Translations under genes and position numbers: made by a program | Shown: in pieces, positions 40,934 through 63,421 of the stretch | Position numbering within the stretch: position 1 is the stretch's first letter | Layout: each line of letters begins with the position of its first letter | Notes under the pieces: model-generated | The model's input: only the letters and a program-made list of their open reading frames with translations | Told to the model about the DNA's origin: nothing | Databases searched by the model: none | Assembly: GCA_963723785.1 (NCBI GenBank) | Contig: CAVRSB010000024.1 | Coordinates: 3,288 to 67,287 of the forward strand | Source of the DNA: an uncultured Actinomycetes bacterium | GTDB lineage: Bacteria > Actinomycetota > Thermoleophilia > Gaiellales > JAICJC01 | DNA: 64,000 nucleotides | Reading direction: 5' to 3'

Positions 40934-42101
40934 CTATCGAGGGGGTCGCTCAGGCAACGACCCGGAAGCCGCACGATTTGAGTTCGGAGCGGCCGCAGGC
41001 GCCACCGCAGCACCGCCGCGACCGACGCCAGAGGGCATGCCGGCACCCGAAATGGCTCCCCCGGGCGCCCCGCCCGACCGGCCGATCGTGGCTGCCCCGG
41101 GGCGTCCCAAGCCGCCTTCTCGGCCCCGCCGGATCGGCTGGAAGCGCGGTATTCTGCTGGCCGCGGCCGCGATCATGGTGGTCTTGGGAGTATGGGTGTT
41201 CCTGGGGTACCGCGCGTTCTCCAACGAGGTCGCGAAGGCCAACGCCCGCCTGGACAAACGCACCAAGTCGGCGCTGGCACCCAGCGGAAGCGTGCTGTTC
41301 AACAGTCAGAACACGCTGGTGATGGGCTCCGACAGCCGCGGGTCAAACGCGGTGTCCGGCGCGCGCGCCGACTCGATCCTGATCTTTCGCACCGACCCCG
41401 GCAAGCATCTGATCTCGATGCTCTCGATCCCCCGCGACCTGAGTGTGCCGATTCCCGGTCATGGCGTGAACAAGATCAACGCCGCCTTCGCCTACGGCGG
41501 TCCGAAGCTTTTGATCCGCACTGTCAACCACCTCACCGGGCTCAAGATCAACCACGTGGTGCTGGTCGATTTCCAAGGATTCCGTGAGCTGATCGACTCA
41601 CTCGGCGGGGTCACGATCCAGAACCCGACCAAGGTGATCTCGTCACAGCCCTTCGACGGGCACGGGTGGCGGTTCGAGAAGGGCACGATCACGCTGGACG
41701 GCCGGCATGCACTGGCCTACTCGCGGATCCGCCACACCACCAACCCGCGTGACTCCGATATCACCCGCACCCAGCGACAGCAGCGGGTCATGACCGCGCT
41801 CGGCCATCAGCTGGTCAGCCCGTGGAACATCTTCAACCTGCCCGACATCGGCCGCGCGATCGCCAAGCCGCTGGCGACCGACCTGACCGCAAACGACTTC
41901 CTCGAGCTGGGTTGGGTCAAGTTCCGCGCGAGCCGCACCTTGCAGTGCCACCTGGGCGGCAGCCCGCAGGTGATCGGCGGCCAGGACGTGCTCGTCTCCA
42001 GCCCGCAGAACGCCGCGGTGCTGGGCATGTTCCTCGGCAAGCAGGCCCCCCAGCACACCGCCAGGGGCTCACTCTACGGCCCCGGCTGCTCCGTGCACTA
42101 G
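40818..42101 (+). CDS. LytR-CpsA-Psr (LCP) family cell-envelope phosphotransferase (start uncertain; GTG at 40881 or 40899 is also possible)
   Basis: A Pro-rich cytoplasmic tail is followed by one TM helix. The LCP core has RADSILIFRTDP and SIPRDL, then INAAFAYGGP. Confidence 0.85.
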   Translation: MIDVPPRSMPTAGILEDFNTPVANIPGVPASKQGKGFRTYRGGRSGNDPEAARFEFGAAAGATAAPPRPTPEGMPAPEMAPPGAPPDRPIVAAPGRPKPPSRPRRIGWKRGILLAAAAIMVVLGVWVFLGYRAFSNEVAKANARLDKRTKSALAPSGSVLFNSQNTLVMGSDSRGSNAVSGARADSILIFRTDPGKHLISMLSIPRDLSVPIPGHGVNKINAAFAYGGPKLLIRTVNHLTGLKINHVVLVDFQGFRELIDSLGGVTIQNPTKVISSQPFDGHGWRFEKGTITLDGRHALAYSRIRHTTNPRDSDITRTQRQQRVMTALGHQLVSPWNIFNLPDIGRAIAKPLATDLTANDFLELGWVKFRASRTLQCHLGGSPQVIGGQDVLVSSPQNAAVLGMFLGKQAPQHTARGSLYGPGCSVH

Positions 42102-42116
42102 CTCGGGCGCCTCGAG

Positions 42117-42149
42117 ATGAATAATTGGTGCCTGGCACCAATTCTTCAG
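42117..42149. repeat. AT-rich palindrome family, copy 4 (most degenerate): ATGAATAATTGGTGCC-T-GGCACCAATTCTTCAG
   Basis: Read directly from the sequence. It lies between the convergent LCP and FmdB-like genes. Confidence 0.9.
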
Positions 42150-42470
42150 CCCTCGGCAGCTTTTTTCTTGTCCCCGCTGGAGCTCGGAGTCGGACTTCTT
42201 GGAGTCGCCACTCGAGTTGCTGCCCGAGGAGGAGTCCGAGCTCGACTTGGACTCGCCCCCGCCCTCGCTCTTGGAGTCGGACGGCTTCTTTTTGCCCTTG
42301 CCGTAGTCAGTGTTGTAGAACCCTGAGCCCTTGAAGTGAATCGCCACCGGGTGCAACACGCGCACGGCAGGAGCGCCGCACACCTCGCACACCTCGATCG
42401 GATCATCCGAAAACCGTTGCAGCACCTCGAATCGGTGATCGTTGGTGCAGCGATACTCGTAAATGGGCAT
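42146..42470 (-). CDS. FmdB-family putative regulatory zinc-ribbon protein with Ser/Lys-rich tail; 3' end depends on a probable indel
   Basis: It starts MPIYEYRC..(20)..CEVCG. The listed frame reads through the palindrome to 42069. The alternative frame ends ..GDKKKAAEG with a TGA at 42146-42148 inside the palindrome arm. Confidence 0.65.
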
Positions 42471-42544
42471 AGCACCTAGAGTATACCGGTGGTGTGTAGC
42501 GCCCCGGGAAGGCCGGAAACCCCGTCCGATACCATCACCGCCGT

Positions 42545-43732
42545 ATGCGCATCGCAATCGTGACTGACTTCTACTACCCGGCGCTGGGCGGGATCTCAGA
42601 GCACGTCGACGGCCAGGCCCGGGCACTCACCGCGATGGGCCACGAGGTGACTGTGATCACCGGCAACCACATCGTGCAGCCGTCTGCCAAAGACGACGAT
42701 CTACCACCTCCCGAGCCCACCTTCGAGCTGCTGCGGATCGGCACCATCATTCCCGTGTACGTCCCCGGTTGGGGCAACAACGCGCAGACACAGCACGTGA
42801 TCGGGCCGTGGCTGGGCCAGCGCCTGGGCCGCCTGTTTCGCGAGCGGGGATTCGACGTGGTGCACGTGCACGCGCCCTACAACCCGCCGATGCCGGCCTG
42901 GGCGATCGAGCACACCCCCTACGACGCGCTCTCGGTCGCAACCTTCCACAGCGTGTTTCCGCCGACCACCGGGATGGACATCCTGGCCGCCTGGACACGT
43001 CCGCTGATCGAGCGCCTGGACGGCCGCATCTGCGTGTCGGAAGCGTGCATCGGTTCGCTCACGCCGTACTTCCCCTTTGCCTACCACGTGATCCCCAACG
43101 GCATCGACACGGAGCTGTTCTCGCCCCAAGCCGAGCCCGTAGCCGAGCTGATGGGCGATCACCAGAACATCGTCTTTGTGGGTCGCTTCGACCCCCGCAA
43201 CGGCCTCGATACGATGATCGACGCGTTCAAGCTGCTGTATGCCGAGCGTGGGTCATCGGTGCGCCTGGTGGTGGTCGGAGACGGCCCGCTGCGCAAGAAG
43301 TACGAACACCAGCTGGGCGAGCTGCGCGGCAGTGCCCACTTCGCCGGGCGGTTGAACCGCAGCCGGCCCAACCACCTGGTCAGCGGCGACGTCTTCTGTA
43401 CCCCCTGTAACCGGGCGTCGTTCGGCATGGTGCTGCTGGAAGCGATGAGCTGCGGCCGCCCCGTGGTGGCCAGCCGGATCTCCGGCTTCCAGCTGGTCAT
43501 GCGCGACGGCGTACACGGATACATGATCGAGCCGGCCGACTCGGCGGAGTTGTTTGCTGCCGCGCTGGGCCGTCTGCTGGACAGTGAGGCCGACCGTGTG
43601 CGGATGGGAGCTGCGGGGCGCCGGGAAGCCCTCGAGCGCTACTCGTGGTCACGGGTCGGCGCCCAGCTCGAGACCTATTACACCGACCTGATCGCCGGCC
43701 GGCAGCCGTCATGGGCAAACGCCAGACACTGA
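42545..43732 (+). CDS. GT4-family glycosyltransferase
   Basis: Intact 395-aa ORF. The N-terminus is MRIAIVTDFYYPALGGISEHV. The C-terminal EX7E-type region is FGMVLLEAMSCGRPVVAS. Confidence 0.85.
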   Translation: MRIAIVTDFYYPALGGISEHVDGQARALTAMGHEVTVITGNHIVQPSAKDDDLPPPEPTFELLRIGTIIPVYVPGWGNNAQTQHVIGPWLGQRLGRLFRERGFDVVHVHAPYNPPMPAWAIEHTPYDALSVATFHSVFPPTTGMDILAAWTRPLIERLDGRICVSEACIGSLTPYFPFAYHVIPNGIDTELFSPQAEPVAELMGDHQNIVFVGRFDPRNGLDTMIDAFKLLYAERGSSVRLVVVGDGPLRKKYEHQLGELRGSAHFAGRLNRSRPNHLVSGDVFCTPCNRASFGMVLLEAMSCGRPVVASRISGFQLVMRDGVHGYMIEPADSAELFAAALGRLLDSEADRVRMGAAGRREALERYSWSRVGAQLETYYTDLIAGRQPSWANARH

Positions 43733-45594
43733 CCATCTACGGGGCTTGTGCGGCGGTCGTGATCGTGATCGCGGCGATCGTCGGCGAGCAGCTGGAGAAG
43801 TCTCACGGAAAGACGCTGGTGGCGGTGATCGTGCTGGGCCTGATGGCGTGGACATGGGGCACGTTCACCCCCAACTCGCGCGTGTTCGGCAAGGTCATCG
43901 GACGGGGATTCACGCCCAGTCCGGTGGTGGCGATCACCTTCGACGACGGCCCCACCGAAGAGTTCACTCCCGGAGTGCTGGACGCACTGCGCCAGGCCGG
44001 CGTCAAAGCCACATTCTTCTGCCTGGGTCGTAACGTGCACGCCCACCCCGAGCTCGCCCGCCGGATCGTGGACGAGGGCCACGAGCTTGCCAGCCACGGC
44101 TATGACCACGGCATCATGGCGTTCGCCCGACCCAAGGAGATCGCTCGTCAGCTGCGCTCCACCGAGGCCGAGATCGAGACTGCGGTCGGGCCCCACGGGG
44201 TTCACCTGTTTCGCACTCCCCACGGCTTTCGCAGCATCTTCGTGGTGCGAGTCGCCCGCGAACTGGGATACCGGGTGGTGGGCTGGACCGGCAGCGTCTT
44301 CGACACCGCCAAGCCCGGCACCGAGGTGATCGTGGCGCGCTGCGCCAAGCACCTGCACCCGGGCGCGATCCTGTTGCTGCACGATGGCGACGGCAGCGGC
44401 GCGGGCGACGACCGCTCCCAGACCGTGGCGGCGCTCCCGGGGATCTTCGCCGCCGCCCGAGAGCGGGAGCTCGAGTTCGTGACCGTGACCGAGCTCTCCC
44501 ATCAGCTGCGCCCGCACCCGCGCATGGTGCTCAAGTCGATCGCGGTGGCGGCGGTGCTGGTGGCGGTGGTGGTGGCGGTGTCACAACGGTTCAGCTTCGG
44601 TGTGGTGGCCGACGTCTTCACCGAGGCCAAGTTCGGCTTCGTGGCGCTGGCGCTGCTCGCCAACCTGGCATCGGTCGGCGCCAAGGCGCTCACCTGGCAG
44701 GCGGCGCTGGCGGCGGTGGACAAGGTTGAGGGTGAGGAGCGGGTGAACGCCCGCCTGTCGGACGTCGTCCCGGCCATCTTCATCGGCTTCCTCATGAACA
44801 CGATCCTGTTCGCACGCCTGGGTGAGGTCGCCCGCGTGTCGGTGCTGCGCCGCAAGCTGCACGCCCGGGGTATCCATCTCCCGGTCTCGACCGCCGTTGG
44901 CACGCTGGTGACCGAGCAGATCCTGTCGGGCATCACGCTGGTGCTGGTGCTGGTCGGGGTGGTCGCCTACGTGCCGGTTCCCCGGCAGGCGATCAACCTG
45001 CTGGCGGTGCTGTCGGCGGTGGTGCTCTCGATCGCGCTGGCGGCCGCGATCATCGAGCTGTGGGCGCGCTTCCGGCGCAACCGCGTTCCCCACGACCCGG
45101 CCGATTACGTGGAGCGCTGGTGGCACCTGATGGGGATCAGCTTCACCGCGGTGTTTGTGTCGATGCGCCAAGGGCAGGCCATCTTCCGTCAGCCGCGGCT
45201 GCTGGTGTGGGGGCTGTTCGTTTCCACGCTGTCGTGGTTGGCGCAGCTCTTGGGCATCTACTGGACGCTCAAGGCGTACTCGATCCCGGTGGGCGTGGGG
45301 GCCGCCGGCGTCGTCTTCCTGGCGTCCAACCTGGTGCAACTCTTCCCCATCACTCCGGGTAATCTGGGAGTGTTTCAGGCCGCGACTGCAACCTTGCTGG
45401 CGCGGCTGTATTCGGTACCTGCACGGGCTGCCGTGACGTTCTCGATCGGCCTCCAGCTGATCGAAGCGCTGCTCGGCGTCGGTGTCGGCTTCGTGTTTCT
45501 GTCGCTGGAAGGATTGTCCGTGGGCGCACTGAGGACGGAAATGGAAGAGGAGGGAGAGGCGACATCCGCCGCATCGCCGCAACTGCTCTCGTGA
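43711..45594 (+). CDS. Fusion protein: NodB-type polysaccharide deacetylase plus a polytopic flippase-like domain resembling the lysylphosphatidylglycerol-synthase TM region
   Basis: The NodB motifs are ITFDDGP, ASHGYDH and LLLHDG. They are followed by about 8 predicted TM helices. The ORF is intact, and ATG at 43711 overlaps the GT4 3' end. Confidence 0.7.
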   Translation: MGKRQTLTIYGACAAVVIVIAAIVGEQLEKSHGKTLVAVIVLGLMAWTWGTFTPNSRVFGKVIGRGFTPSPVVAITFDDGPTEEFTPGVLDALRQAGVKATFFCLGRNVHAHPELARRIVDEGHELASHGYDHGIMAFARPKEIARQLRSTEAEIETAVGPHGVHLFRTPHGFRSIFVVRVARELGYRVVGWTGSVFDTAKPGTEVIVARCAKHLHPGAILLLHDGDGSGAGDDRSQTVAALPGIFAAARERELEFVTVTELSHQLRPHPRMVLKSIAVAAVLVAVVVAVSQRFSFGVVADVFTEAKFGFVALALLANLASVGAKALTWQAALAAVDKVEGEERVNARLSDVVPAIFIGFLMNTILFARLGEVARVSVLRRKLHARGIHLPVSTAVGTLVTEQILSGITLVLVLVGVVAYVPVPRQAINLLAVLSAVVLSIALAAAIIELWARFRRNRVPHDPADYVERWWHLMGISFTAVFVSMRQGQAIFRQPRLLVWGLFVSTLSWLAQLLGIYWTLKAYSIPVGVGAAGVVFLASNLVQLFPITPGNLGVFQAATATLLARLYSVPARAAVTFSIGLQLIEALLGVGVGFVFLSLEGLSVGALRTEMEEEGEATSAASPQLLS

Positions 45595-46097
45595 TCGCCG
45601 CGACGGCTGCGGCCTGCTCGGGAGGATCCGGGAGCGGATCCAGCGCGCCCACCGCCTCCTCCAGCGGCCCGGCCCAGCCCACCTACACGATCGCCAAGCC
45701 CGGCACCGAGCTGCACCTGGGCGATATCTCGGTGCGGATCATGAAGATCGAGTGGCGCCGCCACGTGGATGTCCAAGTCGAGCTTCCCGGCACCCGTGTG
45801 TACGCGATCGTGCGCCTGCGGGTGGCGAACACCGGCGACACGCCGGGGACGATCACGCCCACCCAGTTCTGGCTCCTGGACAGCAACCGTCGCGAGTTCC
45901 TGAGCGCACTCAAGCCCGACGTGCCCGATCCGCTGGTGGGACGCACGGTCAAGCCGGGCGCCGCGGTGGCCGGACAGCTCGTGTTCGGCGTCCCCCACCG
46001 AATCCTGTCAGGCTCGGTGCTCGTGTATCAGTTCAAGGACGCCCGCGCGATCGCCGCCGCCACCCACGTCGGCCTCGTCCAATTCGTCCCGAAATGA
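45591..46097 (+). CDS. DUF4352-like secreted lipoprotein (true start probably upstream of 45591)
   Basis: The lipobox is IAATAAACSGG, and the in-frame upstream sequence RRIAATALV would complete a signal peptide. The beta-rich body contains VYAIVRLRVANTG. Confidence 0.55.
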   Translation: MIAATAAACSGGSGSGSSAPTASSSGPAQPTYTIAKPGTELHLGDISVRIMKIEWRRHVDVQVELPGTRVYAIVRLRVANTGDTPGTITPTQFWLLDSNRREFLSALKPDVPDPLVGRTVKPGAAVAGQLVFGVPHRILSGSVLVYQFKDARAIAAATHVGLVQFVPK

Positions 46098-46100
46098 CCG

Positions 46101-46133
46101 GTGAATAATTGGTGCCTGGCACCAATTATTCAT
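46101..46133. repeat. AT-rich palindrome family, copy 5 (near consensus): GTGAATAATTGGTGCC-T-GGCACCAATTATTCAT
   Basis: Read directly from the sequence. It lies between the convergent DUF4352 gene and lysA, and the lysA TAA stop (46126-46128) is inside the right arm. Confidence 0.95.
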
Positions 46134-47407
46134 CTCTGCTGAGGAGGTCGGCGATGGTTTCGCGGCGGACGATCTGGCGGGCGGTGCCGTCCTCAACCAT
46201 GACCGCGGCCGGACGGGGGATGGCGTTGTAGTTGGAGGCCATGCTGGCCGTGTAGGCCCCGGTGGCCGCCACCGCCAGCACATCGCCGGCCGTCAGCCGG
46301 GGCAGCTCCGCCTCCTCAATCAGCACGTCGCCGGTCTCGCAGTGCTTGCCCGCGATCGCGTACGTGACCTGCGCGGGGGCATCGGCCCGGTCGGCCACCA
46401 GCGCCTGGTACTTGGCGGCGTACAGCGTCGGCCGGGGGTTGTCGGACATGCCGCCGTCGACGGCGGCGTAGGTGGTGCCGCTTTCCACCTGCTTGATCGC
46501 ACCGACCGAGTACAGCGTGATCCCGGTCGGGCCGACGATCGAACGGCCCGGCTCCAGCACCAGCTCGGGCAGTGGCAGTCCCCTGGCAGCCATCGCCTCG
46601 GCCACCGACAGCACGATCTCGGTCACCCCGGTGGCGATGTCCGGCACCTGCTCACCGGTCGTGTGTGCTACCGCCAGCCCGCCGCCGAGGTCGAGCACCT
46701 CCAGCTCTCCCAGACCGTTCTGGTCGATCAGGTTGGCCAGCCACCCGACCGCCGCCAGATACGTCCGCAGGTCGCGAATCTGAGAGCCCAGATGCACGTG
46801 CAGGCCGGCCGGCGCCAGATGGTCGAGGGTGGCCGCCCGGTCGAGCGCATCCAAGGCGTCTGCCGGCGCGAAACCGAACTTGGAGTCGCTGTGGCCGGTC
46901 ACGATCTTCTTGTGGGTGTCGGCGGTGATGCCGGGGGTGACCCGCACCAGCACCCGCTGCACCACCCCGTGGGCGGCGGCGATCCGATCGAGTTGGTCGA
47001 GCTCCCCCGGGTGATCCAGCACCACCAGGCCGCAACCCACCCGCACCGCCGCATCCAAATCGGCATCGGACTTGTTGTTTCCGTGCACGATCACCGACGC
47101 CGGATCGGCACCGGCGGCCAGCGCAGCGGCCAGCTCCCCCTCGGAGGCGACGTCGGCACCGATGCCCTGAGCCAGCACCTCGCGCAGCACCCCGACGGTC
47201 GAGTTGGCCTTGCAGGCAAACACCGCCCGGGCAGTTCCCGGGTAGGCATCCAGCGCACTCGACATATGCCCGTGCACGAGCCCGCAGAGCGTCGCGGTCA
47301 TACACCTGTAGCGGTGTGCCGTACTCCTCGGCCAGGTCGGCCATGTCCACCCCACCGACGCGCAGGCGGCCGTCCACGACCTCGGCTGTTTGGGGCAGGA
47401 TCTCCAT
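46126..47407 (-). CDS. lysA: Diaminopimelate decarboxylase (one frameshift near 47300)
   Basis: The blocks are FACKANS, HVHLGSQ, DLGGGL, EPGRSIVG and CETGD. The N-terminus MEILPQTAEVVDGRLRVGG lies in another frame (ATG at 47407). Confidence 0.9.
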
Positions 47408-47473
47408 CACCGCGATGCTATCCGCCGCCGGGGCAGGGGCGCTCCACGGTGGTCGCCGGGTATTCTCCTCGCC

Positions 47474-48973
47474 GTGTCCAAGCGAGTACTCATCGTCGGT
47501 TGGGACGGAGCCGATTGGGAGATCCTCGACCCGATGCTCGAGGCCGGAGCGCTCCCCAACCTGGCCGCATTGATCGCCCGCGGCCATCGCGGCGTGTCGC
47601 GATCGTGTATCCCCTCCCATTCCTGGGCGGCCTGGCCGACCTTCCTGACGGGTGTTGATCCCGCCGGCCACGGAGTGTTCGACATCCTCGAGCACAAGCC
47701 GGGCGCGAGCCGGCGGCTGCCGGTGTCGTCCCACTCGATTCTGGCGCCCACATGGCCGCAGCGGATGACCGAGGCCGACCGCACGACGCTGCTCGTGAAC
47801 GTGCCGCTGACCTATCCGGCGCCCGAGATCAAGGGCGTCGCCATCGCCGGCGGGGTGATTCCCGGTAATACCGCGTTCAGCCACCCGCCCGAGGCCGGCC
47901 CGGCTGTCGACTGGCCGATCAACGGCGGTTCCTGGACGACCTTCCGCGGCCGCCCGGTGGAACTCGTCGACGACGTCGAGCGCGTCACCCAGGCACGGGC
48001 AAAGGCGATGCGCACGCTGATGGACACCAACGAGTGGGACGTGGCCTGCATGGTGTTCGTCTCGCCCGACCGCATCCAGCACTGCCTGATGGAGTACGTC
48101 CACCCCGGCCACCCCGACTTCGCCGAAGCGTCACAGACGCCCACCGCCGACCGTGTCCGGGGCGTGTACCGGTTGCTCGACCGTGAGCTGGGTACGCTGG
48201 TCGAGCGCACCGGGCCGGACGACCTGATCATGCTGATGTCGGACCACGGCCACCAACCGGTCACCCGGGCGCTGAATATGAATCGCGTGCTGCAGGAGCT
48301 CGGCTACCTCAAGCTGGCCCGCGGCTCGGGCCTGGTCGGATTGCTGGCCTGGGGCCGCCTGCGGTCGATCGCGCGAGTCGTGTACGACAAGCTGGGGCTG
48401 CACGGCAAGGTGGCGGTGCCCACGCCCGCCCCCGACTGGGCACACACCCGCGCCTACACCAGCGTCGTTTCGACCGGCGAGGGCGTCTCGATCGCCCTGC
48501 AGGGGCGCGAGCCCGAGGGGATCGTGCCGCCCGAGCAGTACGAGCAGGTGCGTGACCAGCTGGCCGAGGCACTGCTGGCATTCACCGACCCCGACACCGG
48601 CGCACACCCGATCAAGTCGGTGCGCCGGCGCGAGGAGGTGCTCCACGGCGCCTACCTCGACCGCGCCCCGGACCTGCTGCTGGAGGCCGCCCCGCTGTAT
48701 TCGCTCACCCACGCCCGGTCGCTGGTGGAGCCGGCCGACTGGCTGTCGGGCGATCACCGTCCCGAGGGCGTGTACGTCGCTACCGAGTCCAGCCTGACCA
48801 CCGCCCGCGGTGAGGAGATCTCGCTGCAGGACTTCGCCGCGATGATCCTGGCCGAAGCCGGCGTGGGATCCGAGCATTCGGCCGAATCCGAAAGCAGCGG
48901 GGATCCCGTCTACAGCGATGAAGAGCAGGCCGAAGTGGAGCAGCGCCTGCGCGAGCTCGGATACCTCGAGTGA
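47474..48973 (+). CDS. Alkaline-phosphatase-superfamily phosphodiesterase / nucleotide pyrophosphatase family protein
   Basis: Intact from GTG at 47474, with LIVGWDGADWEIL, SHSWAAWPTFLTGVDPAGHGVF and LMSDHGH. It is a paralogue of 14447..15783. Confidence 0.75.
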   Translation: MSKRVLIVGWDGADWEILDPMLEAGALPNLAALIARGHRGVSRSCIPSHSWAAWPTFLTGVDPAGHGVFDILEHKPGASRRLPVSSHSILAPTWPQRMTEADRTTLLVNVPLTYPAPEIKGVAIAGGVIPGNTAFSHPPEAGPAVDWPINGGSWTTFRGRPVELVDDVERVTQARAKAMRTLMDTNEWDVACMVFVSPDRIQHCLMEYVHPGHPDFAEASQTPTADRVRGVYRLLDRELGTLVERTGPDDLIMLMSDHGHQPVTRALNMNRVLQELGYLKLARGSGLVGLLAWGRLRSIARVVYDKLGLHGKVAVPTPAPDWAHTRAYTSVVSTGEGVSIALQGREPEGIVPPEQYEQVRDQLAEALLAFTDPDTGAHPIKSVRRREEVLHGAYLDRAPDLLLEAAPLYSLTHARSLVEPADWLSGDHRPEGVYVATESSLTTARGEEISLQDFAAMILAEAGVGSEHSAESESSGDPVYSDEEQAEVEQRLRELGYLE

Positions 48974-50457
48974 CCGCGCCCCGCTCCGGGGGCGACCATC
49001 GCACGATCCTGACCGGCACGATCGCCAACGTCGTCGGCCTGTTGGTCGGAGTGGCGGCCGCCTTCGGCGTGCAGGCACTGCTCGGGCGAGGGCTGCCGTC
49101 CGGCGGGCTGGGTGTGGTCACACTGGCGGTTCAGGTCGCGTTCGTGGCCTCGGCCGGCGGCCGATTCGGCATGGACATGACCGCCATCCGCCGAGTCGCA
49201 ATCGACTCCTCCGAGGACCAGACCGCCTACCTGCGCAGCCTGATCGACCGAGCGACCTTGATCGCGATCGCGGCCTCCACCCTGCTGGCCGTAGTGGTGG
49301 CCGCCGCAGCGCTTGCCAGCGACCAGTACCACACGGTCGCTGTGGCGGCCACGGCCATCCCTGCGATCGCCGCCGCCAACGTGTATCTGGGAGCCAGCCG
49401 AGGCCTTCGCCTGATGAAGCCCACGCTGTGGGTGTTCTGGATCGGCCAGCCGGTGCTGTGGATTGCCACCGCGGGTGTGGCGATCGCGCTGGGTGGAGGA
49501 GTCAACGCCGCCGCCGCCTCCTACACGGTCTCCTGGGTGGTGGCCGCGATCGCCGCGCGCATCTGGTGGATGCGCCTGTCTGCCGGCATGGGCGATCAGC
49601 GGGCGACCCGCGAGCAGGTGCGCGAGGCGCTGCGCTACGGCCTGCCGCGAGCGCCGTCGGCACTGTTCGCGCAGGCGCTGTTCTGGGCCGACCTGTTCGT
49701 CCTGGGGCACTACATCCGCGGCCAGAAGCTTGACGCCTATGCCGCCGCGGGCCGCGTGTCCCAGGTGCTGCTGCTGTTCGTGGTCTCGACCAGCCTGATC
49801 TTCTCGCCGTTTGCGGCCGAGCTCCACGCCCGCGGTGATACCGAGCGGCTCGACCATCTGTTCAAGGACGCCACCCGGTGGGCGGTGGCCGCCACCCTGC
49901 CGATCCTGATCATCCTGTTCGTGGCCGCCGACGACGTCCTGCGGGTGTTCGGATCGGGCCTGCAGGTCGGCTCGACGCCGCTTCGGATCATGCTGGTCGG
50001 CCAGGCCGTGAATGTCGCCACCGGAAGCGTCGCAGCGGTGCTCATCATCGTGGGCCGCACCGGCCTCGATCTGGTCGACAACCTGGTCGCGAACATCCTG
50101 CTGGTGGGGATCGCACTGCTGCTGGTGTCCAAGTACGGGCCGACCGGCGCCGCGATCGCCTCGGCGGTGGCAATCGCGGGCGTCAACCTGCTGCGGGTCG
50201 CCCAGGTGAACCGGCACGTCAAGATCCAGCCGTTCGCCCGCTCGCAGCTACCGCTGGCGGTGCCGGCCGTGGTGTGCCTGGCGGTGGCGCTGGCGGTGCA
50301 CTGGCTGACGGGCGATTTGGTGTGGTGGGTGACGCTTCTGGCGACCGCCGGTTCTGGCATGATCGCCTACGCACTCTTGATCGTGCCCGCCCTCCCGGCA
50401 AACGAACGAACGGTGATCCGGCGGCGACTGCGCGCCGTCGGCCGCACCTCCCCGTAG
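48970..50457 (+). CDS. MOP-superfamily (Wzx/polysaccharide biosynthesis protein) flippase
   Basis: Intact 495-aa ORF with about 12-14 predicted TM helices. The GTG start overlaps the upstream stop. Confidence 0.7.
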   Translation: MTAPRSGGDHRTILTGTIANVVGLLVGVAAAFGVQALLGRGLPSGGLGVVTLAVQVAFVASAGGRFGMDMTAIRRVAIDSSEDQTAYLRSLIDRATLIAIAASTLLAVVVAAAALASDQYHTVAVAATAIPAIAAANVYLGASRGLRLMKPTLWVFWIGQPVLWIATAGVAIALGGGVNAAAASYTVSWVVAAIAARIWWMRLSAGMGDQRATREQVREALRYGLPRAPSALFAQALFWADLFVLGHYIRGQKLDAYAAAGRVSQVLLLFVVSTSLIFSPFAAELHARGDTERLDHLFKDATRWAVAATLPILIILFVAADDVLRVFGSGLQVGSTPLRIMLVGQAVNVATGSVAAVLIIVGRTGLDLVDNLVANILLVGIALLLVSKYGPTGAAIASAVAIAGVNLLRVAQVNRHVKIQPFARSQLPLAVPAVVCLAVALAVHWLTGDLVWWVTLLATAGSGMIAYALLIVPALPANERTVIRRRLRAVGRTSP

Positions 50458-50495
50458 TATCTGCCACAACCAATCGACCTTTGGAGCACCTGAAC

Positions 50496-51678
50496 ATGCG
50501 TGTACTCATCCTCGGTGGCGACGGGTATCTCGGCTGGCCCACCGCAATGCGATTCTCCGGCAAGGGCCACGATGTCGCCGTCGTCGACAATTTCAACAGG
50601 CGCCGCTGGGTCGAGGGTCAGGGCGGCGATTCGCTGACGCCGATCGCGACGCTGACCGAGCGAGTGGCGGCATGGCGCGAGGTGTCGGGGAAGACCATCG
50701 ACGTGCACGTGGGCGACATCGCCGAGGGCACCTTCGTAGCCGACATCGTGCGCGACTATGCCCCCGACACGATCATCCACTACGGCGAGCAGCCGTCGGC
50801 GCCGTGGTCGATGCAGTCGCATCGACAACGCCGTCGAGACGCAGCAGGACAACGTGATCGGCACGCTCAAGCTGCTGTGGGCGATGCGCGAGCACGCGCC
50901 CGACGCGCACCTGATCAAGCTCGGGACGATGGGCGAGTACGGCACGCCCAACATCGACATCGAAGAGGGCTTCATCGAGATCGAGCACAACGGCCGCCGC
51001 GACGTGCTGCCGTTCCCCAAGGTACCGGGCTCGCTCTACCACCTGTCCAAGGTGCACGACTCGCACAACATGCACTTCGGCTGCCGCGTGTGGGGCCTGC
51101 GGGCGACCGACCTCAACCAGGGCGTGGTGTACGGCATCGAGACGCCCGAAACCAAGCTGGACGACCGGCTGGCGACCCGATTCGACTATGACGAGTCGTT
51201 CGGCACCGCACTCAACCGGTTCTGCGTGCAGGCCGTGATCGGACACCCACTGACGGTGTACGGCAAGGGCGGCCAGACCCGCGGGTTCCTCAACATCGTC
51301 GACACGCTGCAGTGCGTGGAGCTGACCGCGGACAACCCGGCCGGGCGCCGGCGAGTACCGGGTGTTCAACCAGTTCACCGAGGTAGTTCACCGTCGGCCG
51401 ACCTGGCCGAGAAGGTGCGGCATGCGGGCGGAGAGATCGGGATCGAGGTGCAGGTGCAGAACCTCACCAACCCGCGGTTCGAGGCCGAGGAGCACTACTA
51501 CAACCCGACCCACACGCGGCTGCCCTCGCTGGGGCTTCAGCCGACCCTGCTTTCGGAGACGCTGATCGAATCCACCCTGGGCGTCATCGACCGATACAAG
51601 TCGCGCGTGATCGCCGGCGTGATCGACCCGTCCACCCGGTGGCAGTCGTCGCCGCTGGCAGGTCAGCCGGCTCGGTAG
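50496..51678 (+). CDS. sqdB: UDP-sulfoquinovose synthase (SQD1/SqdB type), frameshifted near 50800 and twice near 51350-51400
   Basis: Long near-identical blocks to plant and cyanobacterial SQD1, from memory: GGDGYLGWPTA, SLTPIA, KLGTMGEYGTPNIDIEEG, YHLSKVHDS, ATDLNQGVVYG, FGTALNRFCVQA, TVYGKGGQTRGF, VFNQFTE and NPRFEAEEHYYN. GGAG lies 9 nt before the ATG. Confidence 0.9.
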
Positions 51679-51682
51679 CTCC

Positions 51683-52735
51683 GTGGGGTTGACGCCACTT
51701 CGATGGGTGGGCCTGATCGTAGCGATCGTGTTCGCCGTGTTGTCGATCCGCTCCTACCGTCAGGGCAAGATCGGAAACGGCGACCTGCTGGTGCGGATGG
51801 TCGTGTTCGTGCTCCCGCTGCTGGTGCTGTCGTTGGTGCCCGGCGCGCTCAGCTGGGTGTTCGACGAGCTGTCGTTCCGCAAGGGCGGCGGCCGCCAGAT
51901 CATCGGCGCCACGGTGCTCGCGGTCGGCATCCTGTACCTGTTTGCCTTCACTCTGGCCGGCCGCAACGAGCGCGTCCGGCGCGATCTCACGCGCCTGATC
52001 GAGAACCTCGCACTGGAGCAGTTCCGCGGTACCGGCCACCCCGAGCAGTTCGCCGAAGGGGTGGCGGTGGTGGTGCCGGCCTACAACGAGGCCGACAACA
52101 TCGGCCACGTGCTGTCGGCGCTGCCGGAAGAGGTGTGCGGCAAGGCGCTGCATGTGATCGTGATCGATGACGGCTCGTCCGACGACACCACCGACCGGGC
52201 GCGGGCAGCGGGCGCGGCGGCGGTGCGGCTGCCGCTCAACCGCGGCCAGGGCGCAGCGCTTCGCACCGGGTATCGGCTGGCGCTGATCACCGGGGCCGAC
52301 GTGGTGGTGACCATGGACGCTGACGGCCAGCATCAACCGTCGGAGCTGTCGCGGCTGGTCGCCCCGATCGTGGCCGACGAGGCCGACGTGGTCAACGGCT
52401 CACGGGTGCTGGGCGATGCCGATCCGTCTCACGCCGCCAGGGAGATGGGCATCAAGCTGTTCGCCCAGCTGCTGTCGCTGCTGACGTGGAGCAAGATCAC
52501 CGACCCGGCCTGCGGGTATCGCGCGGTGCGCACCGAGGCCCTGCGCGGCCTGGAGTTCCGCCAGGATCAGTTCCACAACTCGGAGTTCATCATCGAGGCC
52601 TCCAAGCAGAAGCTGCGCATGATCGAGGTGCCGGTCACCGTCGCCCGGCGGCTGTCGGGCACGTCCAAGAAGCCGGCGCACTTCCGCTACGGGATGGGCT
52701 TTGCCAATGCGCTGGTGCGAGCGTGGCTCCGGTAG
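51683..52735 (+). CDS. GT2-family glycosyltransferase with N-terminal 3-TM (DUF2304-like) extension
   Basis: Intact 350-aa ORF with VVVPAYNEADNI, VIDDGSSDDT and TMDADGQH. Confidence 0.85.
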   Translation: MGLTPLRWVGLIVAIVFAVLSIRSYRQGKIGNGDLLVRMVVFVLPLLVLSLVPGALSWVFDELSFRKGGGRQIIGATVLAVGILYLFAFTLAGRNERVRRDLTRLIENLALEQFRGTGHPEQFAEGVAVVVPAYNEADNIGHVLSALPEEVCGKALHVIVIDDGSSDDTTDRARAAGAAAVRLPLNRGQGAALRTGYRLALITGADVVVTMDADGQHQPSELSRLVAPIVADEADVVNGSRVLGDADPSHAAREMGIKLFAQLLSLLTWSKITDPACGYRAVRTEALRGLEFRQDQFHNSEFIIEASKQKLRMIEVPVTVARRLSGTSKKPAHFRYGMGFANALVRAWLR

Positions 52736-53661
52736 CTCGCGGTCCGGTCGTCCACTGGGACGACGTCACCCCGCGCACGCGTGAGGTCGGCTACATCAAG
52801 GCCGACTGGTCGGCATCTCGGCTACAAGGCGGGCAGCGTCACCGTCGGCGCCAACCGGCTGCAGATCCCACCCGGCCGCATGCCCAACCCGCCCCACCTG
52901 CACGGAGCCGAGGAAGAGATCTTCTACGTGCTGTCCGGATCGGGGCTCTCATGGCAGGACGGCGAGACGTTCGAGGTGCGGGCCGGCGACTGCATCGTGC
53001 ACGTGGCCAACACCAAGGCGCACACGCTCCGCGGCGGTGACGACGGTCTGGACGTGCTGGTGTTCGGTCAGCGGGTGCCGGTGGAGCTGTGCAACCTGCC
53101 CAGGGCGGAGACCGGCTGGCTGGGTCCCCGCTGGGTGCCGACAGCGGGGCCCGATCCCTGGCACGCAGACGCCGAGCTCGGGCCGCCCGACTTCCCCGCG
53201 CCCAGCCCTCGGCCCAGCAACATCGTGAACGTCGCCGATGCACACGGTGACCGACGATCAGCGCGAGACGGTGGGCCGGAAGGTCAGGCGGCTCGGGAGC
53301 CGAGGCAGGGTCGGCCAAAACCGGGCTGCGGCACGTCGAGGTGACCCCGGCAAGCTCAACGGCCCGCCCCACTGCCACTCGGCGGAGGAGGAGCTGATGG
53401 TCGTGCTGGGCGGGGAGGGAACACTGCTTCTGGGCGACGACGAGATCGCGGTGCGCGCCGGCAGCGTGGTGTCGCGGCCGGCCGGCACCGGGCGTCGCCC
53501 ATGCCTTCCGCGGCGGCGAGCAGGGACTCGAGCTGCTGCTGTACGGCACCCGCGATACCAACGACATCGCCTACTTCCCCCGCTCCGGCAAGATCTCGCT
53601 GCGCGGGATCGGCATCACCGGCCGGATCGAGCCGCTCGGCTACTGGGACGGCGAGGAATGA
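52723..53661 (+). CDS. Bicupin protein, frameshifted
   Basis: There are two cupin cores: PPHLHGAEEEIFYVLSGSG..VRAGDCIV and PPHCHSAEEELMVVLGGEG..VRAGSVV. It ends ..GYWDGEE with a TGA at 53659-53661. Confidence 0.6.
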
Positions 53662-53685
53662 GTAGCGCGCTCGAGAGCGCTACTC
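53660..53685. terminator. Unique GC-rich hairpin (9-bp arms GAGTAGCGC/GCGCTACTC) between convergent genes, containing both stop codons
   Basis: The inverted repeat was read directly. TGA 53659-53661 on the plus strand and TAG 53680-53682 on the minus strand fall in or at the arms. Confidence 0.4.
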
Positions 53686-54591
53686 GGTGAAGTACTCCCA
53701 GGTGGCCCGCAGCCCGTCGGCGAGCTGCACCTGCGGCCGGTAGCCGAGCCGCTCGAAGGCCTTGTCGACCAGCGAGTAGTTGCGCTGGATCTCCCCCGCC
53801 CGCGGTGGCTCACGCCGCACATTGGGCTCGCGCCCCGAAACCTCGCCGAGCTTTGCCACCAGCTCGTTCAGGCTGGTCTCCACGCCGCTTGCGAGCTGGA
53901 ACACCTCGCCGCCGATGCCGGGCGTCACGGCGGCCCGCACCAGGCCGTCGGCGAGATCGGTGACGAACACGAAGTCACGCGTCTGGGTGCCGTCGCCGTA
54001 CACCACCAGCTCCTCTCCAGCCAGGATCCGGCGGATGAACAGCGGGATCACGTTGCCCTTGTGGGCCGACCGCGGCCCGAATGCGTTCGAGAACCGCACC
54101 GCCACCGCCTCCAGCCCATAGGCGCCGTGGAAGGCGGAGCAGTAGGCCTCGCCCACCGCCTTGGAGGCGCCGTAGGGGGAGAGCGGCGCGGTCGGCTTGT
54201 CCTCGCTGGCGGGGTAGGCGCCCGCGCCCAGCGGCGCGTTGGAGGACGAGAACACGAACCGGGGCACTCCCGCGCGGTGGGCAGCCCACAGCGCGGTCAC
54301 GGTGCCGCGGGCGTTCACGTCGAAGTTCGCCAGCGGGTCTTCGACCGACTCGATCACACCGGCGCCCGCCGCCAGGTGAAACATGGCGTCGCACCCGTGG
54401 GCGGCCGCGACCAGCGCGTCGAGGTCGCGCACGTCGCCCTGCACGATCTCGGCTCCGGTGCCGTCCAGCAGACCTGCGCCGGCGCTCGACAGGTCGTCGA
54501 ACACCCGCACCTCGTAGCCCCGCTCGGCCAGCAGCCTGACCAGCGTTGACCCAATGAACCCGGCCCCGCCGGTAACCAGCGCTTGACTCAC
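53680..54591 (-). CDS. NAD-dependent sugar epimerase/dehydratase (SDR, UDP-glucose 4-epimerase-like)
   Basis: Intact 303-aa ORF with TGGAGFIGS and YGASK. Confidence 0.85.
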   Translation of the reverse strand: MSQALVTGGAGFIGSTLVRLLAERGYEVRVFDDLSSAGAGLLDGTGAEIVQGDVRDLDALVAAAHGCDAMFHLAAGAGVIESVEDPLANFDVNARGTVTALWAAHRAGVPRFVFSSSNAPLGAGAYPASEDKPTAPLSPYGASKAVGEAYCSAFHGAYGLEAVAVRFSNAFGPRSAHKGNVIPLFIRRILAGEELVVYGDGTQTRDFVFVTDLADGLVRAAVTPGIGGEVFQLASGVETSLNELVAKLGEVSGREPNVRREPPRAGEIQRNYSLVDKAFERLGYRPQVQLADGLRATWEYFTE

Positions 54592-54791
54592 CTACCACCT
54601 CCATCGTGTTCACGGTCGTACTCCCAGCACGGCGCGTTCTCGAACGCCTCGAGGCCGTCGCCGTCCTGTGCCCCAGGCTGCAGCCCGCGTCGCAGCCGAG
54701 GAGCGGCCACTGCGATCACGCCGCCGACCAGCGTGCCGAACGCGAACGTCCGCGCCGCCCGGCCGCGCTTCTTCTGCGTCGGCGGGCTCAC
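54588..54791 (-). CDS. Small hypothetical protein (67 aa) coupled to both neighbours by GTGA overlaps
   Basis: The GTG at 54791 overlaps the upstream stop, and its own TGA overlaps the epimerase GTG. It has one hydrophobic segment (FAFGTLVGGVIAVAA). Confidence 0.3.
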   Translation of the reverse strand: MSPPTQKKRGRAARTFAFGTLVGGVIAVAAPRLRRGLQPGAQDGDGLEAFENAPCWEYDREHDGGGR

Positions 54792-55270
54792 GACGACTCG
54801 CGATAGGCGATGAATCCCGCCAGCAGCAGGCCGAGCACCTGCACGTACAGCCGCGGGTTGCCGCCGACGTGGGCAGCGATCACGATCGCGGCGCAGATGT
54901 ACGACCAGGCCGCGCCCGAGGCGGCGATCCAGCCGGTGGAGTTGGCGCGGTAGTAGCCGCTGAAGCGAAGCGTCACCCGACCGACCACCAGCCCCACGAT
55001 GTACGCCACGATCAGCGTGAAAAACCCAAGCCCCTGATATCCCGCGTACGCCAGCAGGATTCCCAGCCCGGAGCCGGTCAGAAGCGCTGCGGCAACCGCC
55101 CTGGCGGCCTTGTCCGGGCGCAGCGTGACACGGGCCGATCGCGGCTGGCGAGCGCAGTCGCGGCACTTGATGCCGACCGGCGCCATCACCATGCAGTCAG
55201 GACAGATGGGCTTGCCGCAATTCGAGCACGACACCGCCGTCTCGACCTTGGGATGGTTGGCGCAATACAT
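54788..55270 (-). CDS. B-box-type zinc-finger membrane protein
   Basis: It starts MYCANHP..CSNCGKPICPDC..CRDC and continues with about 4 TM helices. ATG at 55270 lies within track ORF 54788..55309. Confidence 0.5.
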   Translation of the reverse strand: MYCANHPKVETAVSCSNCGKPICPDCMVMAPVGIKCRDCARQPRSARVTLRPDKAARAVAAALLTGSGLGILLAYAGYQGLGFFTLIVAYIVGLVVGRVTLRFSGYYRANSTGWIAASGAAWSYICAAIVIAAHVGGNPRLYVQVLGLLLAGFIAYRESS

Positions 55271-55335
55271 GGGTGAGGTGGTCTGGGACACCGTTTGCGA
55301 GTGTAACACCGGCCCCCGCGGCAGCCTTCACCTGG

Positions 55336-56646
55336 TCATGCCGCCCGAGCGCGCACCGCGAGGTGGAGGGCAAGCCGCTGATCGGGATCGTCCAGATCGA
55401 CGCCGAGCGTCGCCACGATCCGCTTGATCCGGTAGGCGACCGCGTTTCGGTGCAGGTGCAGCTCGCGACCTGCCGCCACCAGCGACCCGCCGTGGTCGAG
55501 GTAGGAGCGCAGGGTGCGGACGGCCTCGGCCGCTCGCCGGCCGCCGAGTGCATCCAACGGCGCCAGCAGCTGCTCCACCGACGCCCGAGCAGCATCGTTG
55601 GCATACCACTCGACCAGCATCCGCTGGAGCCCGGCCGGGTCGAACGCGTTGACCACGCCCGCCGGGCCGGAGTCAAGCGCCGAGCGGGCCTCCGCGTCGG
55701 AGCTGCGAAGACCGGCAAGGCCTGCGTGCGGCGTTCCGACACCGCACCTGATCTCTCCGGCCGGTGGCAGCGCCGCGATCACACGGCGGGCCGTGTCGGC
55801 CACGGCAGCCGTCCTGCGCTGCCCCGGCTCGGCCCGGTCCATCCGCACCAGCACGATGGCGGAGTCAAGCAGGGCTGCGTGCCACACCCCTCCACCGGCC
55901 CGTGCGGTCTCCAGCGCCGCTCGCACCACATCCTCGTCCGAGGCCTCCAGCTCGAGCCGCACCACGGTGTGCCAGCCGTCCACCGGCAATCCCAGCGTAC
56001 GTGCCCGATCGGCCACCAGGCTGGTGCGATGCGGGGAGGCCAACAAGAGCTCGGTCAGCACAACTCCCCGCGACCGGATCGGTGCGTCGACCCGGCGCCG
56101 CTCCTCCTGCTCCCAGCGGGCGCTGATCTCACCGGCGGTGACCAGTGCGAGCTGTCGCGCAACACCCGGCGCGCCGTGCGCGGGCGCATCCGCGGCCATC
56201 AGATCGCGCGCCAGCTCGGCCACTCGTCGGGGAGATCGATCATCGGACGAGCGCAGCGCAGTGACGAACGCCGAGGCGTCCATCAGTGCCTGGGCGGCGC
56301 CGGCGTCGATCACGCGGGTCACGTGCATGCACAGGGCGCCGACGTCCACGTCCGCGCCCGCAGCCAGCACTGCAGGCCCCGCCCGCCCGGCGATCGCGTG
56401 AACGGTCGGCGACAGCGGCCGCGGCGGGTCGATCAACACCAGCGCCGCCGCCCCGCGTTCCGAAAGCGTGCGAGTGGCGGAGTCGAGCCGGTAACCGGAG
56501 ACGTCGACCGCCCGGGCCAGCACCACTGCCATCCCGGCGGATACCTGCTCGAGGTGGCTGACCTGCTCGACCACCGACACCCCGGAGAGTTCGACCGCCG
56601 GTGCGTCAATCAGCCGCTCCAGCCCGAGATCAGAGGCCAACGCCAT
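55336..56646 (-). CDS. PucR/CdaR-family transcriptional regulator
   Basis: Intact 436-aa ORF. The C-terminal PucR HTH is LRSYLDHGGSLVAAGRELHLHRNAVAYRIKRI. Confidence 0.8.
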   Translation of the reverse strand: MALASDLGLERLIDAPAVELSGVSVVEQVSHLEQVSAGMAVVLARAVDVSGYRLDSATRTLSERGAAALVLIDPPRPLSPTVHAIAGRAGPAVLAAGADVDVGALCMHVTRVIDAGAAQALMDASAFVTALRSSDDRSPRRVAELARDLMAADAPAHGAPGVARQLALVTAGEISARWEQEERRRVDAPIRSRGVVLTELLLASPHRTSLVADRARTLGLPVDGWHTVVRLELEASDEDVVRAALETARAGGGVWHAALLDSAIVLVRMDRAEPGQRRTAAVADTARRVIAALPPAGEIRCGVGTPHAGLAGLRSSDAEARSALDSGPAGVVNAFDPAGLQRMLVEWYANDAARASVEQLLAPLDALGGRRAAEAVRTLRSYLDHGGSLVAAGRELHLHRNAVAYRIKRIVATLGVDLDDPDQRLALHLAVRARAA

Positions 56647-63388: not shown

Positions 63389-63421
63389 GTGAATAATTCG
63401 TGCCTGGCACCAATTATTCAC
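63389..63421. repeat. AT-rich palindrome family, copy 6: GTGAATAATTCGTGCC-T-GGCACCAATTATTCAC (one arm mismatch)
   Basis: Read directly from the sequence. It lies between two co-directional minus-strand genes, and the upstream gene's TAG stop (63421-63423) abuts the right arm. Confidence 0.95.

Follow-up and report, generated by a model that had tools for sequence, protein, structure and literature searches.

What use would a non-phototrophic soil actinobacterium make of UDP-sulfoquinovose? This question is raised by a 64-kb stretch of DNA with approximately 69% G+C (contig CAVRSB010000024.1 of an uncultured member of the Gaiellales; the whole stretch is called the window below), in which sqdB, predicted from its sequence to be a UDP-sulfoquinovose synthase gene, is located between genes for a flippase of the multidrug/oligosaccharidyl-lipid/polysaccharide (MOP) superfamily and for a family 2 glycosyltransferase (GT2). 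Sulfoquinovose has been treated almost entirely as the head group of sulfoquinovosyl diacylglycerol (SQDG), the sulfolipid of phototrophs, besides its presence in a few archaeal N-glycans, and a 2026 review of sulfoquinovose cycling gives SQDG synthesis only via the SqdB-SqdX/SQD1-SQD2 route (PMC13436972). The reading favoured here, to which a probability of about 0.6 is assigned, is that the locus belongs to a three-component, lipid-carrier-dependent glycosylation that uses sulfoquinovose, with the window locus representing its donor-making and flipping half. The homologies, the conserved pairing of sqdB with the GT2 gene and the GT-C fold predicted for a protein of relatives are computed, and every chemical step is inferred; the sulfoquinovose lipid-carrier route is no more than a prediction, and as an example of the proposed system the window is incomplete and laden with errors.

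In the proposed route, SqdB would convert UDP-glucose together with sulfite into UDP-sulfoquinovose, as suggested by its identity to SQD1 and its intact catalytic residues. The GT2, which is fused to a DUF2304 domain, would move sulfoquinovose to polyprenyl phosphate at the cytoplasmic face of the membrane to yield polyprenyl-phosphate-beta-sulfoquinovose, a step proposed because of the family membership of the GT2 and because a GacJ-type domain serves this class of enzymes in GacI/GacJ and PpgS/Rv3632. By analogy with GacK, the MOP flippase may carry the charged lipid to the outer face, where a GT-C glycosyltransferase, whose candidate gene is present in the operon of Gaiellaceae relatives and not in the 64-kb window, would attach the sugar to a wall glycopolymer, a lipoglycan or a protein. 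The outcome would be a phosphate-free anionic (sulfonate) decoration of the surface. Judged from the sequences, sulfoquinovose probably goes to the cell surface, and the suggestion of the first-pass annotation, made from the gene context, of an exported use linked to a lipid carrier rather than a classical sulfolipid is upheld at this level. Its loose analogy with Agl3-dependent N-glycans has been given up, and a Wzx-flipped repeat unit is not favoured either: because the GT2 is of the polyprenol-phosphate monosaccharide synthase type and carries a GacJ-like DUF2304 domain, the closest analogues are the bacterial three-component side-chain systems GacI/J/K/L, PpgS/Rv3632/Rv3779 and ArnC/ArnT.

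SqdB and its DUF2304-GT2 partner

Genes were called from a listing of open reading frames (ORFs) together with Pfam, which reproduced the gene order and strands first read from the sequence, namely a phosphodiesterase (PDE) of the AlkP superfamily, the MOP flippase, sqdB, GT2, a bicupin and a convergent epimerase, and the GTGA overlap of the PDE stop and the flippase start is real. The flippase and sqdB genes are separated by 38 nt and sqdB and GT2 by 4 nt, and the GT2 and bicupin genes overlap by 13 nt; the plus-strand junctions between 47.4 and 53.7 kb are tight. A minus-strand lysA gene on the left flank places the start of the operon at the PDE, whose start at 47474 fits the point where the alignment with its homologue in L002 begins (L numbers designate the loci of relatives), and the flippase reads as one frame when aligned with its L002 homologue. 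Two soil metatranscriptomes gave contigs of 95-100% identity that bridge the PDE/flippase junction (48905-49112 and 48888-49250), and a metatranscriptome contig spans the GT2/bicupin junction (52583-53076); these are consistent with co-transcription, for which they are weak evidence.

The SQD1 signature attributed to SqdB at first sight is borne out, since the read-through product (with X at the joins between frames) matches Arabidopsis SQD1 (1qrr) at 506.8 bits (E 4.6e-151), residues 2-384 aligning to residues 3-384 of the 1qrr chain with approximately 63% identity. The NAD-binding motif GxxGxxG is kept, the segments GGDGYLG, GTMGEYG and YHLSK align with identical segments of SQD1, and these motifs presumably hold the counterparts of the SQD1 catalytic residues T145, Y182, H183 and K186.

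The extension with three transmembrane (TM) segments that had been noted on the GT2 is likewise real and corresponds to Pfam DUF2304, the GacJ/Rv3632 family, scoring above its cut-off (Table 1). This domain with its three TM segments occupies residues 6-112 approximately and is followed by the catalytic domain at about residues 126-330, and C-terminal TM helices are absent. The best NCBIfam matches of the protein are PpgS (1.8e-32), AglJ (8e-29), a haloarchaeal dolichol-phosphate hexose transferase (5e-22) and ArnC (1e-17), all of which are polyprenol- or dolichol-phosphate sugar synthases. Sequence matches in the PDB are Pyrococcus dolichol-phosphate mannose synthase (DPMS; 8e-17) and ArnC, with whose motifs the DDGSSD, MDADGQH and R..G.SK segments of the GT2 align, MDADGQH corresponding to DADLQH in DPMS and DADLQN in ArnC. 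An AlphaFold2 model built on 47 sequences, with a predicted local distance difference test score (pLDDT) of 81, consists of N-terminal helices and then a GT-A domain, with no C-terminal TM helices, and its top fold matches are ArnC (ranks 1-7) and DPMS (rank 8), with GtrB appearing later. On the basis of sequence and model, the GT2 is predicted to be a polyprenyl-phosphate sulfoquinovose synthase. Concerning the domain fused to it, GacJ assembles into a complex with GacI, the synthase of undecaprenyl phosphate (Und-P)-linked N-acetylglucosamine (GlcNAc), and lowers its Km for Und-P, the DUF2304 homologue Rv3632 stimulates PpgS, GacJ-GacI fusions exist, and the pathway of GacI/GacJ is completed by the Wzx-type GacK and the GT-C enzyme GacL (bioRxiv 10.1101/180810).

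Conservation of the pair and the transfer step in relatives

A scan of species-representative genomes with sqdB gave 580 relatives, of which the best 80 loci were kept, mostly from Gaiellales, Solirubrobacterales and other Actinomycetota metagenome-assembled genomes (MAGs). A homologue of the window GT2 adjoins sqdB in 62 of these 80 loci, being directly downstream and co-directional in Gaiellales and divergent, approximately 50-150 nt upstream, in Solirubrobacterales, where the pair is flanked by the housekeeping genes gatA, gatB, ilvB, menF, menD, menC and menA. Nearly all GT2 partners have about 350 aa, from which it follows that all carry the N-terminal membrane domain, and their catalytic motifs are invariant. 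The flippase (14 of 15 loci), the PDE and the epimerase (13 of 15 each) are linked to sqdB only within Gaiellales, with PDE and flippase conserved together in loci L001-L015 and also in L081 and L084. Thus, of the joint flippase and GT2 context to which the first-pass annotation had drawn attention, the GT2 pairing holds across at least two orders when neighbourhoods are compared, while the flippase linkage is confined to the Gaiellales; the GT2, not the flippase, is the diagnostic conserved partner of sqdB.

This conservation bears on the possibility that SqdB feeds a classical SQDG pathway with a GT4 or GT8 synthase encoded elsewhere in the genome and that the GT2 and the flippase handle another sugar, such as glucose, GlcNAc or N-acetylgalactosamine, the adjacency of sqdB and GT2 being incidental or merely regulatory. 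Such a division of labour would accommodate the GT2 scores, all of which fall below the equivalog cut-offs (values are given below), and a GT4 gene is indeed present 6.8 kb upstream (Table 1). However, this sole GT4 of the window neighbourhood lies across lysA and is found among relatives only in L001, and an adjacency maintained in 62 of 80 loci, in at least two orders, in two arrangements and with changing flanks is hard to explain without functional coupling. No partner of the SqdX/SQD2 or SqdD type stands next to sqdB, as had been noted from the start, since no GT4 or GT8 gene is adjacent, and in seven of ten loci without the GT2 the neighbours of sqdB were scanned, with no GT4 or GT8 among the nine proteins covered. 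A classical sulfolipid role is accordingly regarded as distinctly improbable.

A candidate for the component that would act after the flippase is encoded in relatives. A 668-aa polytopic protein without a Pfam match is located directly upstream of sqdB in L014 and L015, it is part of a co-directional operon with the order PDE-flippase-(sulfotransferase)-668-aa protein-sqdB-GT2 in the Gaiellaceae relatives L081/L082 and L084, and a member of its family lies within 4 kb in L085. The model of this protein, obtained from a 38-sequence alignment (pLDDT 90, predicted TM-score 0.92), has exclusively GT-C enzymes as its top 19 PDB fold matches, including STT3, DPY19, ArnT, AglB, AftA, ALG12, ALG9, AftB and Pmt4, and a GT-C transferase fold is predicted for it on this ground. 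Distant members of the family with 39% identity or less are not linked to sqdB.

Several observations weigh against the proposed lipid-carrier glycosylation. A GT-C candidate was not found within the 64-kb window, either by a TM screen of all ORFs supported by third-position G+C content (GC3), by tblastn with nine large membrane proteins of relatives or by Pfam on the right-hand end, where the partial 5-TM ORF 63421-63999 was also checked as a candidate and nothing was found; L001-L003 and L005, the closest relatives, likewise have no GT-C candidate at a distance of up to 8 kb from sqdB. In Solirubrobacterales the sqdB-GT2 pair stands alone, with flippase and GT-C absent nearby. The GT2 remains below every NCBIfam equivalog cut-off (PpgS 112.6 against 370, AglJ 100.9 against 325 and ArnC 63.8 against 529 bits), representing by sequence a subfamily separate from PpgS, AglJ and ArnC, and retaining, soluble GpgS enzymes are interleaved among the close fold matches of its model. 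SqdB reaches 482 bits over residues 1-384 of 384, with a cut-off of 575 for the NCBIfam UDP-sulfoquinovose synthase equivalog NF041015; since the intact SqdB of L001 scores the same 482 bits, this shortfall is not caused by the frame breaks described below, and it reflects the composition of the model. Additionally, the depth of the metatranscriptome contigs is low and DNA carry-over is possible, and for sulfoquinovose in the envelope of any member of the Thermoleophilia the literature searched gives neither biochemical nor compositional evidence.

In Solirubrobacterales, as in many other loci, the sqdB-GT2 module is isolated among housekeeping genes and has neither a flippase nor a GT-C gene nearby, and a GT-C gene was not found within reach in the window or in the closest relatives. 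This would be expected if the product of the GT2 were itself terminal, that is, a phosphate-sparing sulfoquinovosyl membrane lipid that a non-classical synthase makes and that is not transferred further. Either polyprenyl-phosphate-sulfoquinovose might be retained as an anionic lipid, or an inverting GT2 might make beta-sulfoquinovosyl diacylglycerol, and the use of diacylglycerol acceptors by GT2 enzymes is exemplified by the cyanobacterial MgdA, which makes beta-glucosyl-diacylglycerol. A terminal lipid is nevertheless considered unlikely, as polyprenol-phosphate enzymes rank first in both sequence and fold matches, the only known role of DUF2304 is to partner Und-P sugar synthases, and a purely inner-leaflet lipid would need neither the flippase that is co-operonic in Gaiellales nor the protein with predicted GT-C fold that is co-operonic in Gaiellaceae.

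As to the acceptor in the preferred lipid-carrier glycosylation, the plus-strand genes at 40818-46097 constitute an upstream envelope-glycopolymer context, and in some relatives the clusters additionally contain genes for a TagF-like Glyphos_transf enzyme and for an ABC-2 exporter. The LCP-family ligase and the deacetylase-UPF0104 fusion of the window, together with these TagF-like and ABC-2 genes of relatives, fit a wall glycopolymer without identifying the acceptor. In L081 (1-3511), a 1183-aa protein with GT2 domains and a TagF-type CDP-glycerol glycerophosphotransferase domain is encoded immediately upstream of the operon, with ABC-2 exporter genes nearby, which suggests a teichoic-acid-like polymer as the acceptor in relatives. 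The fusion of the deacetylase to UPF0104/LPG_synthase_TM is conserved upstream of the module in Gaiellales (window 43645-45594; L006 2-772), with a stand-alone UPF0104 gene following a DUF2079-like membrane protein in L012 (12103-13206), and the UPF0104 domain may translocate the lipid-linked sugar in place of the flippase or in addition to it.

Further proteins accompany sqdB in particular groups of loci. Sulfotransferase genes (Sulfotransfer_1/3) are present in or beside the sqdB/GT-C operons of L081 (6931-8004), L084 (10589-11509), L085 (15372-16001) and L086 (9079-9969), from which it appears that envelopes of Gaiellaceae may carry both sulfonate (C-S) and sulfate-ester modifications; the window has no sulfotransferase gene of this kind. 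A divergent gene for a 703-aa protein with 13 TM segments lies between flippase and sqdB in L004, L006 (5746-7857, minus strand), L007, L009, L010, L011 and L013. This protein has no Pfam or NCBIfam match, comparison of its family profile with that of the GT-C family gave a probability of 18%, and it may be another transferase or a polymerase. In 29 loci with the Solirubrobacterales-type arrangement (L016-L044 and others, for example L044 6487-6780), a gene convergent with that of the DUF2304-GT2 encodes a protein of 97 aa, possibly a small accessory subunit, that has two TM helices and, at its C-terminus, a zinc ribbon. In the Solirubrobacterales locus L064 (6090-10289), sqdB is accompanied by a 636-aa enzyme of GT2/GT21 type (processive glycolipid-synthase-like) and a polysaccharide deacetylase instead of a DUF2304-GT2, which is a second non-classical context for sqdB.

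Layout of the locus and its broken frames

The features of the locus are collected in Table 1. The PDE lacks a signal peptide and TM segments and is therefore probably cytoplasmic; a search for its function went no further than the generic family PF01663 and an N-terminus with weak likeness to PhnA, and its only PDB relative is phosphonoacetate hydrolase (E 8e-4). For the bicupin, in which Pfam finds Cupin_2 in two fragments, the function search gave nothing but weak matches, to sugar-phosphate isomerases of the cupin type whose function is unknown. Its intact 307-aa homologue in L002 (10238-11161) has two Cupin_2 domains, and since a bicupin is found among relatives only in L001 and L002, it is taken as an accessory gene. 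The epimerase scores 168 bits with NCBIfam GalE, below the cut-off of 262, and the small 3-TM protein beyond it is conserved in Gaiellales loci. The inverted repeat between the bicupin and epimerase genes is a possible bidirectional transcript end, at which indel differences between the window and L001 exist; a scan of 46000-55500 for consensus promoters and terminators returned no sites, and this repeat was not picked up either.

Table 1. Features of the sqdB locus and its surroundings, in positions of the window
Feature	Position	Strand	Evidence or remark
LCP-family ligase	40818-42101	+	NCBIfam and Pfam
GT4	42545-43732	+	NCBIfam and Pfam; among relatives only in L001
Polysaccharide deacetylase fused to UPF0104/LPG_synthase_TM flippase-like domain	43645-45594	+	NCBIfam and Pfam
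DUF4352 protein	45591-46097	+	NCBIfam and Pfam
lysA (diaminopimelate decarboxylase)	46126-47355	-	NCBIfam lysA 390 bits, cut-off 297.9
AlkP-superfamily phosphodiesterase (PDE)	47474-48973	+	Pfam Phosphodiest PF01663 2e-32; first gene of plus-strand unit
MOP-superfamily (Wzx/GacK-like) flippase	48970-50457	+	Polysacc_synt 8.5e-12, MatE 1.7e-7; 12 predicted TM segments
sqdB, predicted UDP-sulfoquinovose synthase	50496-51678	+	frame-broken in assembly; match to SQD1
DUF2304-GT2 fusion	51683-52735	+	DUF2304 38.2 bits (cut-off 25.5); Glycos_transf_2 4.4e-25
Bicupin, two Cupin_2 domains	52723-53661	+	frame-broken in assembly
GC-rich short inverted repeat GAGTAGCGC ... GCGCTACTC	53660-53685	no strand	between convergent bicupin and epimerase; read directly
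GalE-like NAD-dependent sugar-nucleotide epimerase/dehydratase	53680-54591	-	Pfam Epimerase 4.3e-61
Small membrane protein, 3 TM segments, N-terminal zinc-finger-like motif	54788-55309	-	weak zf-B_box match

The sqdB and bicupin genes are both present at the positions first assigned to them, but neither is an open frame in the deposited sequence, and neither break had been noticed in the first-pass annotation. The sqdB interval has 1183 nt, which is no multiple of 3, and the gene is split over frames, with the N-terminal 108 codons in one frame, the remainder in another and an additional garbled stretch at approximately 51341-51395. The bicupin with its two Cupin_2 domains is scattered over three frames, the one originally given having three in-frame stops. 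The nearest public locus, L001, is from a long-read soil MAG with 92% DNA identity to the window, in comparison with which sqdB has four single-base insertions (50820, 51341, 51385 and 51395); over 17 kb the two sequences differ by 166 indels, 152 of them of single bases. The window was also compared with assembler contigs of public runs (plant and soil metagenomes, the library type of these DNA runs being unrecorded, and the two soil metatranscriptomes). Near-identical contigs of independent runs, one of them a metatranscriptome, have none of the four sqdB insertions, public-run contigs contradict the window at five bicupin sites (52813/4, 53245, 53294/8, 53348 and 53488/93), and at positions where L001 has indels of its own they side with the window. 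Scoring against intact L002 proteins shows breaks in sqdB, bicupin and lysA of the window and, in L001, in the flippase (five breaks or more), GT2, PDE, lysA and bicupin. With the four bases omitted, for the analysis only, sqdB has 1179 nt encoding 392 aa, its product is 98% identical to that of L001 and the ratio of nonsynonymous to synonymous differences (pN/pS) is 0.05. An intact sqdB was found in all 20 relatives checked, with about 391-458 aa and most often 391-396.

It is concluded from these sequence comparisons that the breaks in sqdB and bicupin arose as consensus errors in a long-read assembly of low coverage and that the genes would be intact in nature, the grounds being the public-run contigs, the breaks scored against L002, the breaks in housekeeping genes throughout the window, the intact relatives and the pN/pS value. 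If the four frame-shifting insertions of sqdB and the several bicupin indels of the deposited window are taken at face value, both genes could be true pseudogenes, or sqdB could be decoded by programmed frameshifting, with the locus decaying in this organism. Very little weight is given to this explanation, which was rejected on the public-run contigs, the intact relatives, the pN/pS value and the window-wide errors: the insertions are all missing from independent contigs, the same type of 1-nt error breaks mfd, glmU, lysA and a psuG-like gene in the window and other genes in L001, the two sequences differ by single-base indels throughout, and programmed frameshifting at four separate sites would be unprecedented. 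Because the breaks are assembly errors on this conclusion, sqdB would be labelled a pseudogene, wrongly, if this genome were annotated automatically.

Elsewhere in the window, the housekeeping regions 25570-28015, 33089-34419, 34971-37013, 47237-47419 and 61121-62045 are broken, with mfd and glmU each split into two ORFs, the psuG-like (Indigoidine_A) gene split in two, the N-terminal part of lysA frame-shifted near 47256 and the domains of tatD, ksgA and ispE run together in one 680-aa ORF. The error rate of the assembly amounts to roughly one single-base indel per few hundred bases, so that any pseudogene called in this genome needs checking against reads. A perfect AT-rich 33-nt palindrome, GTGAATAATTGGTGCCTGGCACCAATTATTCAT, is located at 46101-46133 between the convergent DUF4352 and lysA genes, and over 46000-46300 the depth of public-run contigs rises sharply, by 10-fold to 50-fold, as a dispersed repeat would lead one to expect.

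Implications and comparison with known systems

The literature searched, outside of which most subscription-journal papers lie, yielded no account of the proposed route in bacteria and no report that places sulfoquinovose in Thermoleophilia or on polyprenyl or undecaprenyl phosphate, or that pairs it with a bacterial GT2. The conserved pairing of sqdB with a gene for a glycosyltransferase of polyprenol-phosphate type in actinobacteria that are abundant in soil leads to three expectations, namely a lipid intermediate and a class of sulfonated glycoconjugates on bacterial surfaces that would both be new, and a non-phototrophic source of sulfoquinovose in soil that has gone unrecognised. It is put forward tentatively, at somewhat less than even odds, that polyprenyl-phosphate-sulfoquinovose is a real, previously undescribed donor made by a dedicated family of DUF2304-GT2 enzymes and that soil Thermoleophilia (Gaiellales, Solirubrobacterales and allied Actinomycetota) place the sulfonated sugar on wall polymers or surface proteins via new GT-C families. 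As these lineages are abundant in soil, they would in that case make a large non-phototrophic contribution of sulfoquinovose to the sulfur cycle of soil, and the decoration would be a functional counterpart of teichoic-acid charge at no phosphorus cost.

One of the closest counterparts of the window locus is the GacI/GacJ/GacK/GacL system, which supplies the GlcNAc side chain of the group A carbohydrate of Streptococcus pyogenes (bioRxiv 10.1101/180810). Common to both are a GT2 charging Und-P with a monosaccharide (predicted in the present case), a DUF2304 three-helix membrane partner, a Wzx/MOP flippase in the same cluster, a GT-C enzyme (predicted in relatives of the window locus) and an LCP ligase in the wider locus. 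The systems differ in that the adjacent gene of the window would supply UDP-sulfoquinovose instead of UDP-GlcNAc, that DUF2304 is fused to the N-terminus of the GT2, that no GT-C gene is present in the window, and that the GT-C family of the relatives is without a Pfam match and, as far as tested, unrelated in sequence to GacL. Likeness to PpgS (Rv3631)/Rv3632/Rv3779, which puts galactosamine on the arabinogalactan of Mycobacterium tuberculosis, extends to an actinobacterial host, a polyprenyl-phosphate sugar used by a GT-C enzyme outside the membrane, a DUF2304 homologue in Rv3632, and PpgS itself as the best NCBIfam match of the window GT2. However, the latter belongs to a different subfamily (112.6 bits as compared to 370), its predicted donor sugar is different, and the two proteins are fused in the window. 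With ArnC/ArnE-F/ArnT and GtrA/GtrB/GtrV, the proposed system would share the logic of charging the carrier inside, flipping it and transferring the sugar by a GT-C enzyme, and ArnC is the top fold match. While ArnC and GtrB are anchored by C-terminal TM helices, the window GT2 has none of these and carries the N-terminal DUF2304 domain instead, and the window flippase is of the MOP family rather than of the small multidrug-resistance-like or GtrA family.

The classical sulfolipid pathways, SqdB-SqdX of cyanobacteria, SQD1-SQD2 of plants and sqdBDC/sqdA of Rhodobacter and Sinorhizobium, have the same first enzyme. In contrast to their retaining GT4 (SqdX/SQD2) or GT8 (SqdD), the partner in the window is a GT2 of the inverting, polyprenol-phosphate type, the host is a non-phototrophic soil actinobacterium and a flippase gene is co-operonic. 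Agl3-dependent N-glycosylation of Sulfolobus acidocaldarius resembles the proposal in that a SqdB homologue provides sulfoquinovose for a surface glycoconjugate via a lipid-linked pathway. In Sulfolobus, however, the sugar is added at the cytoplasmic side to a dolichol-pyrophosphate-linked oligosaccharide and the whole glycan is transferred by AglB, whereas in the bacterial host of the window locus a single, monophosphate-linked sugar is predicted to be used after flipping.

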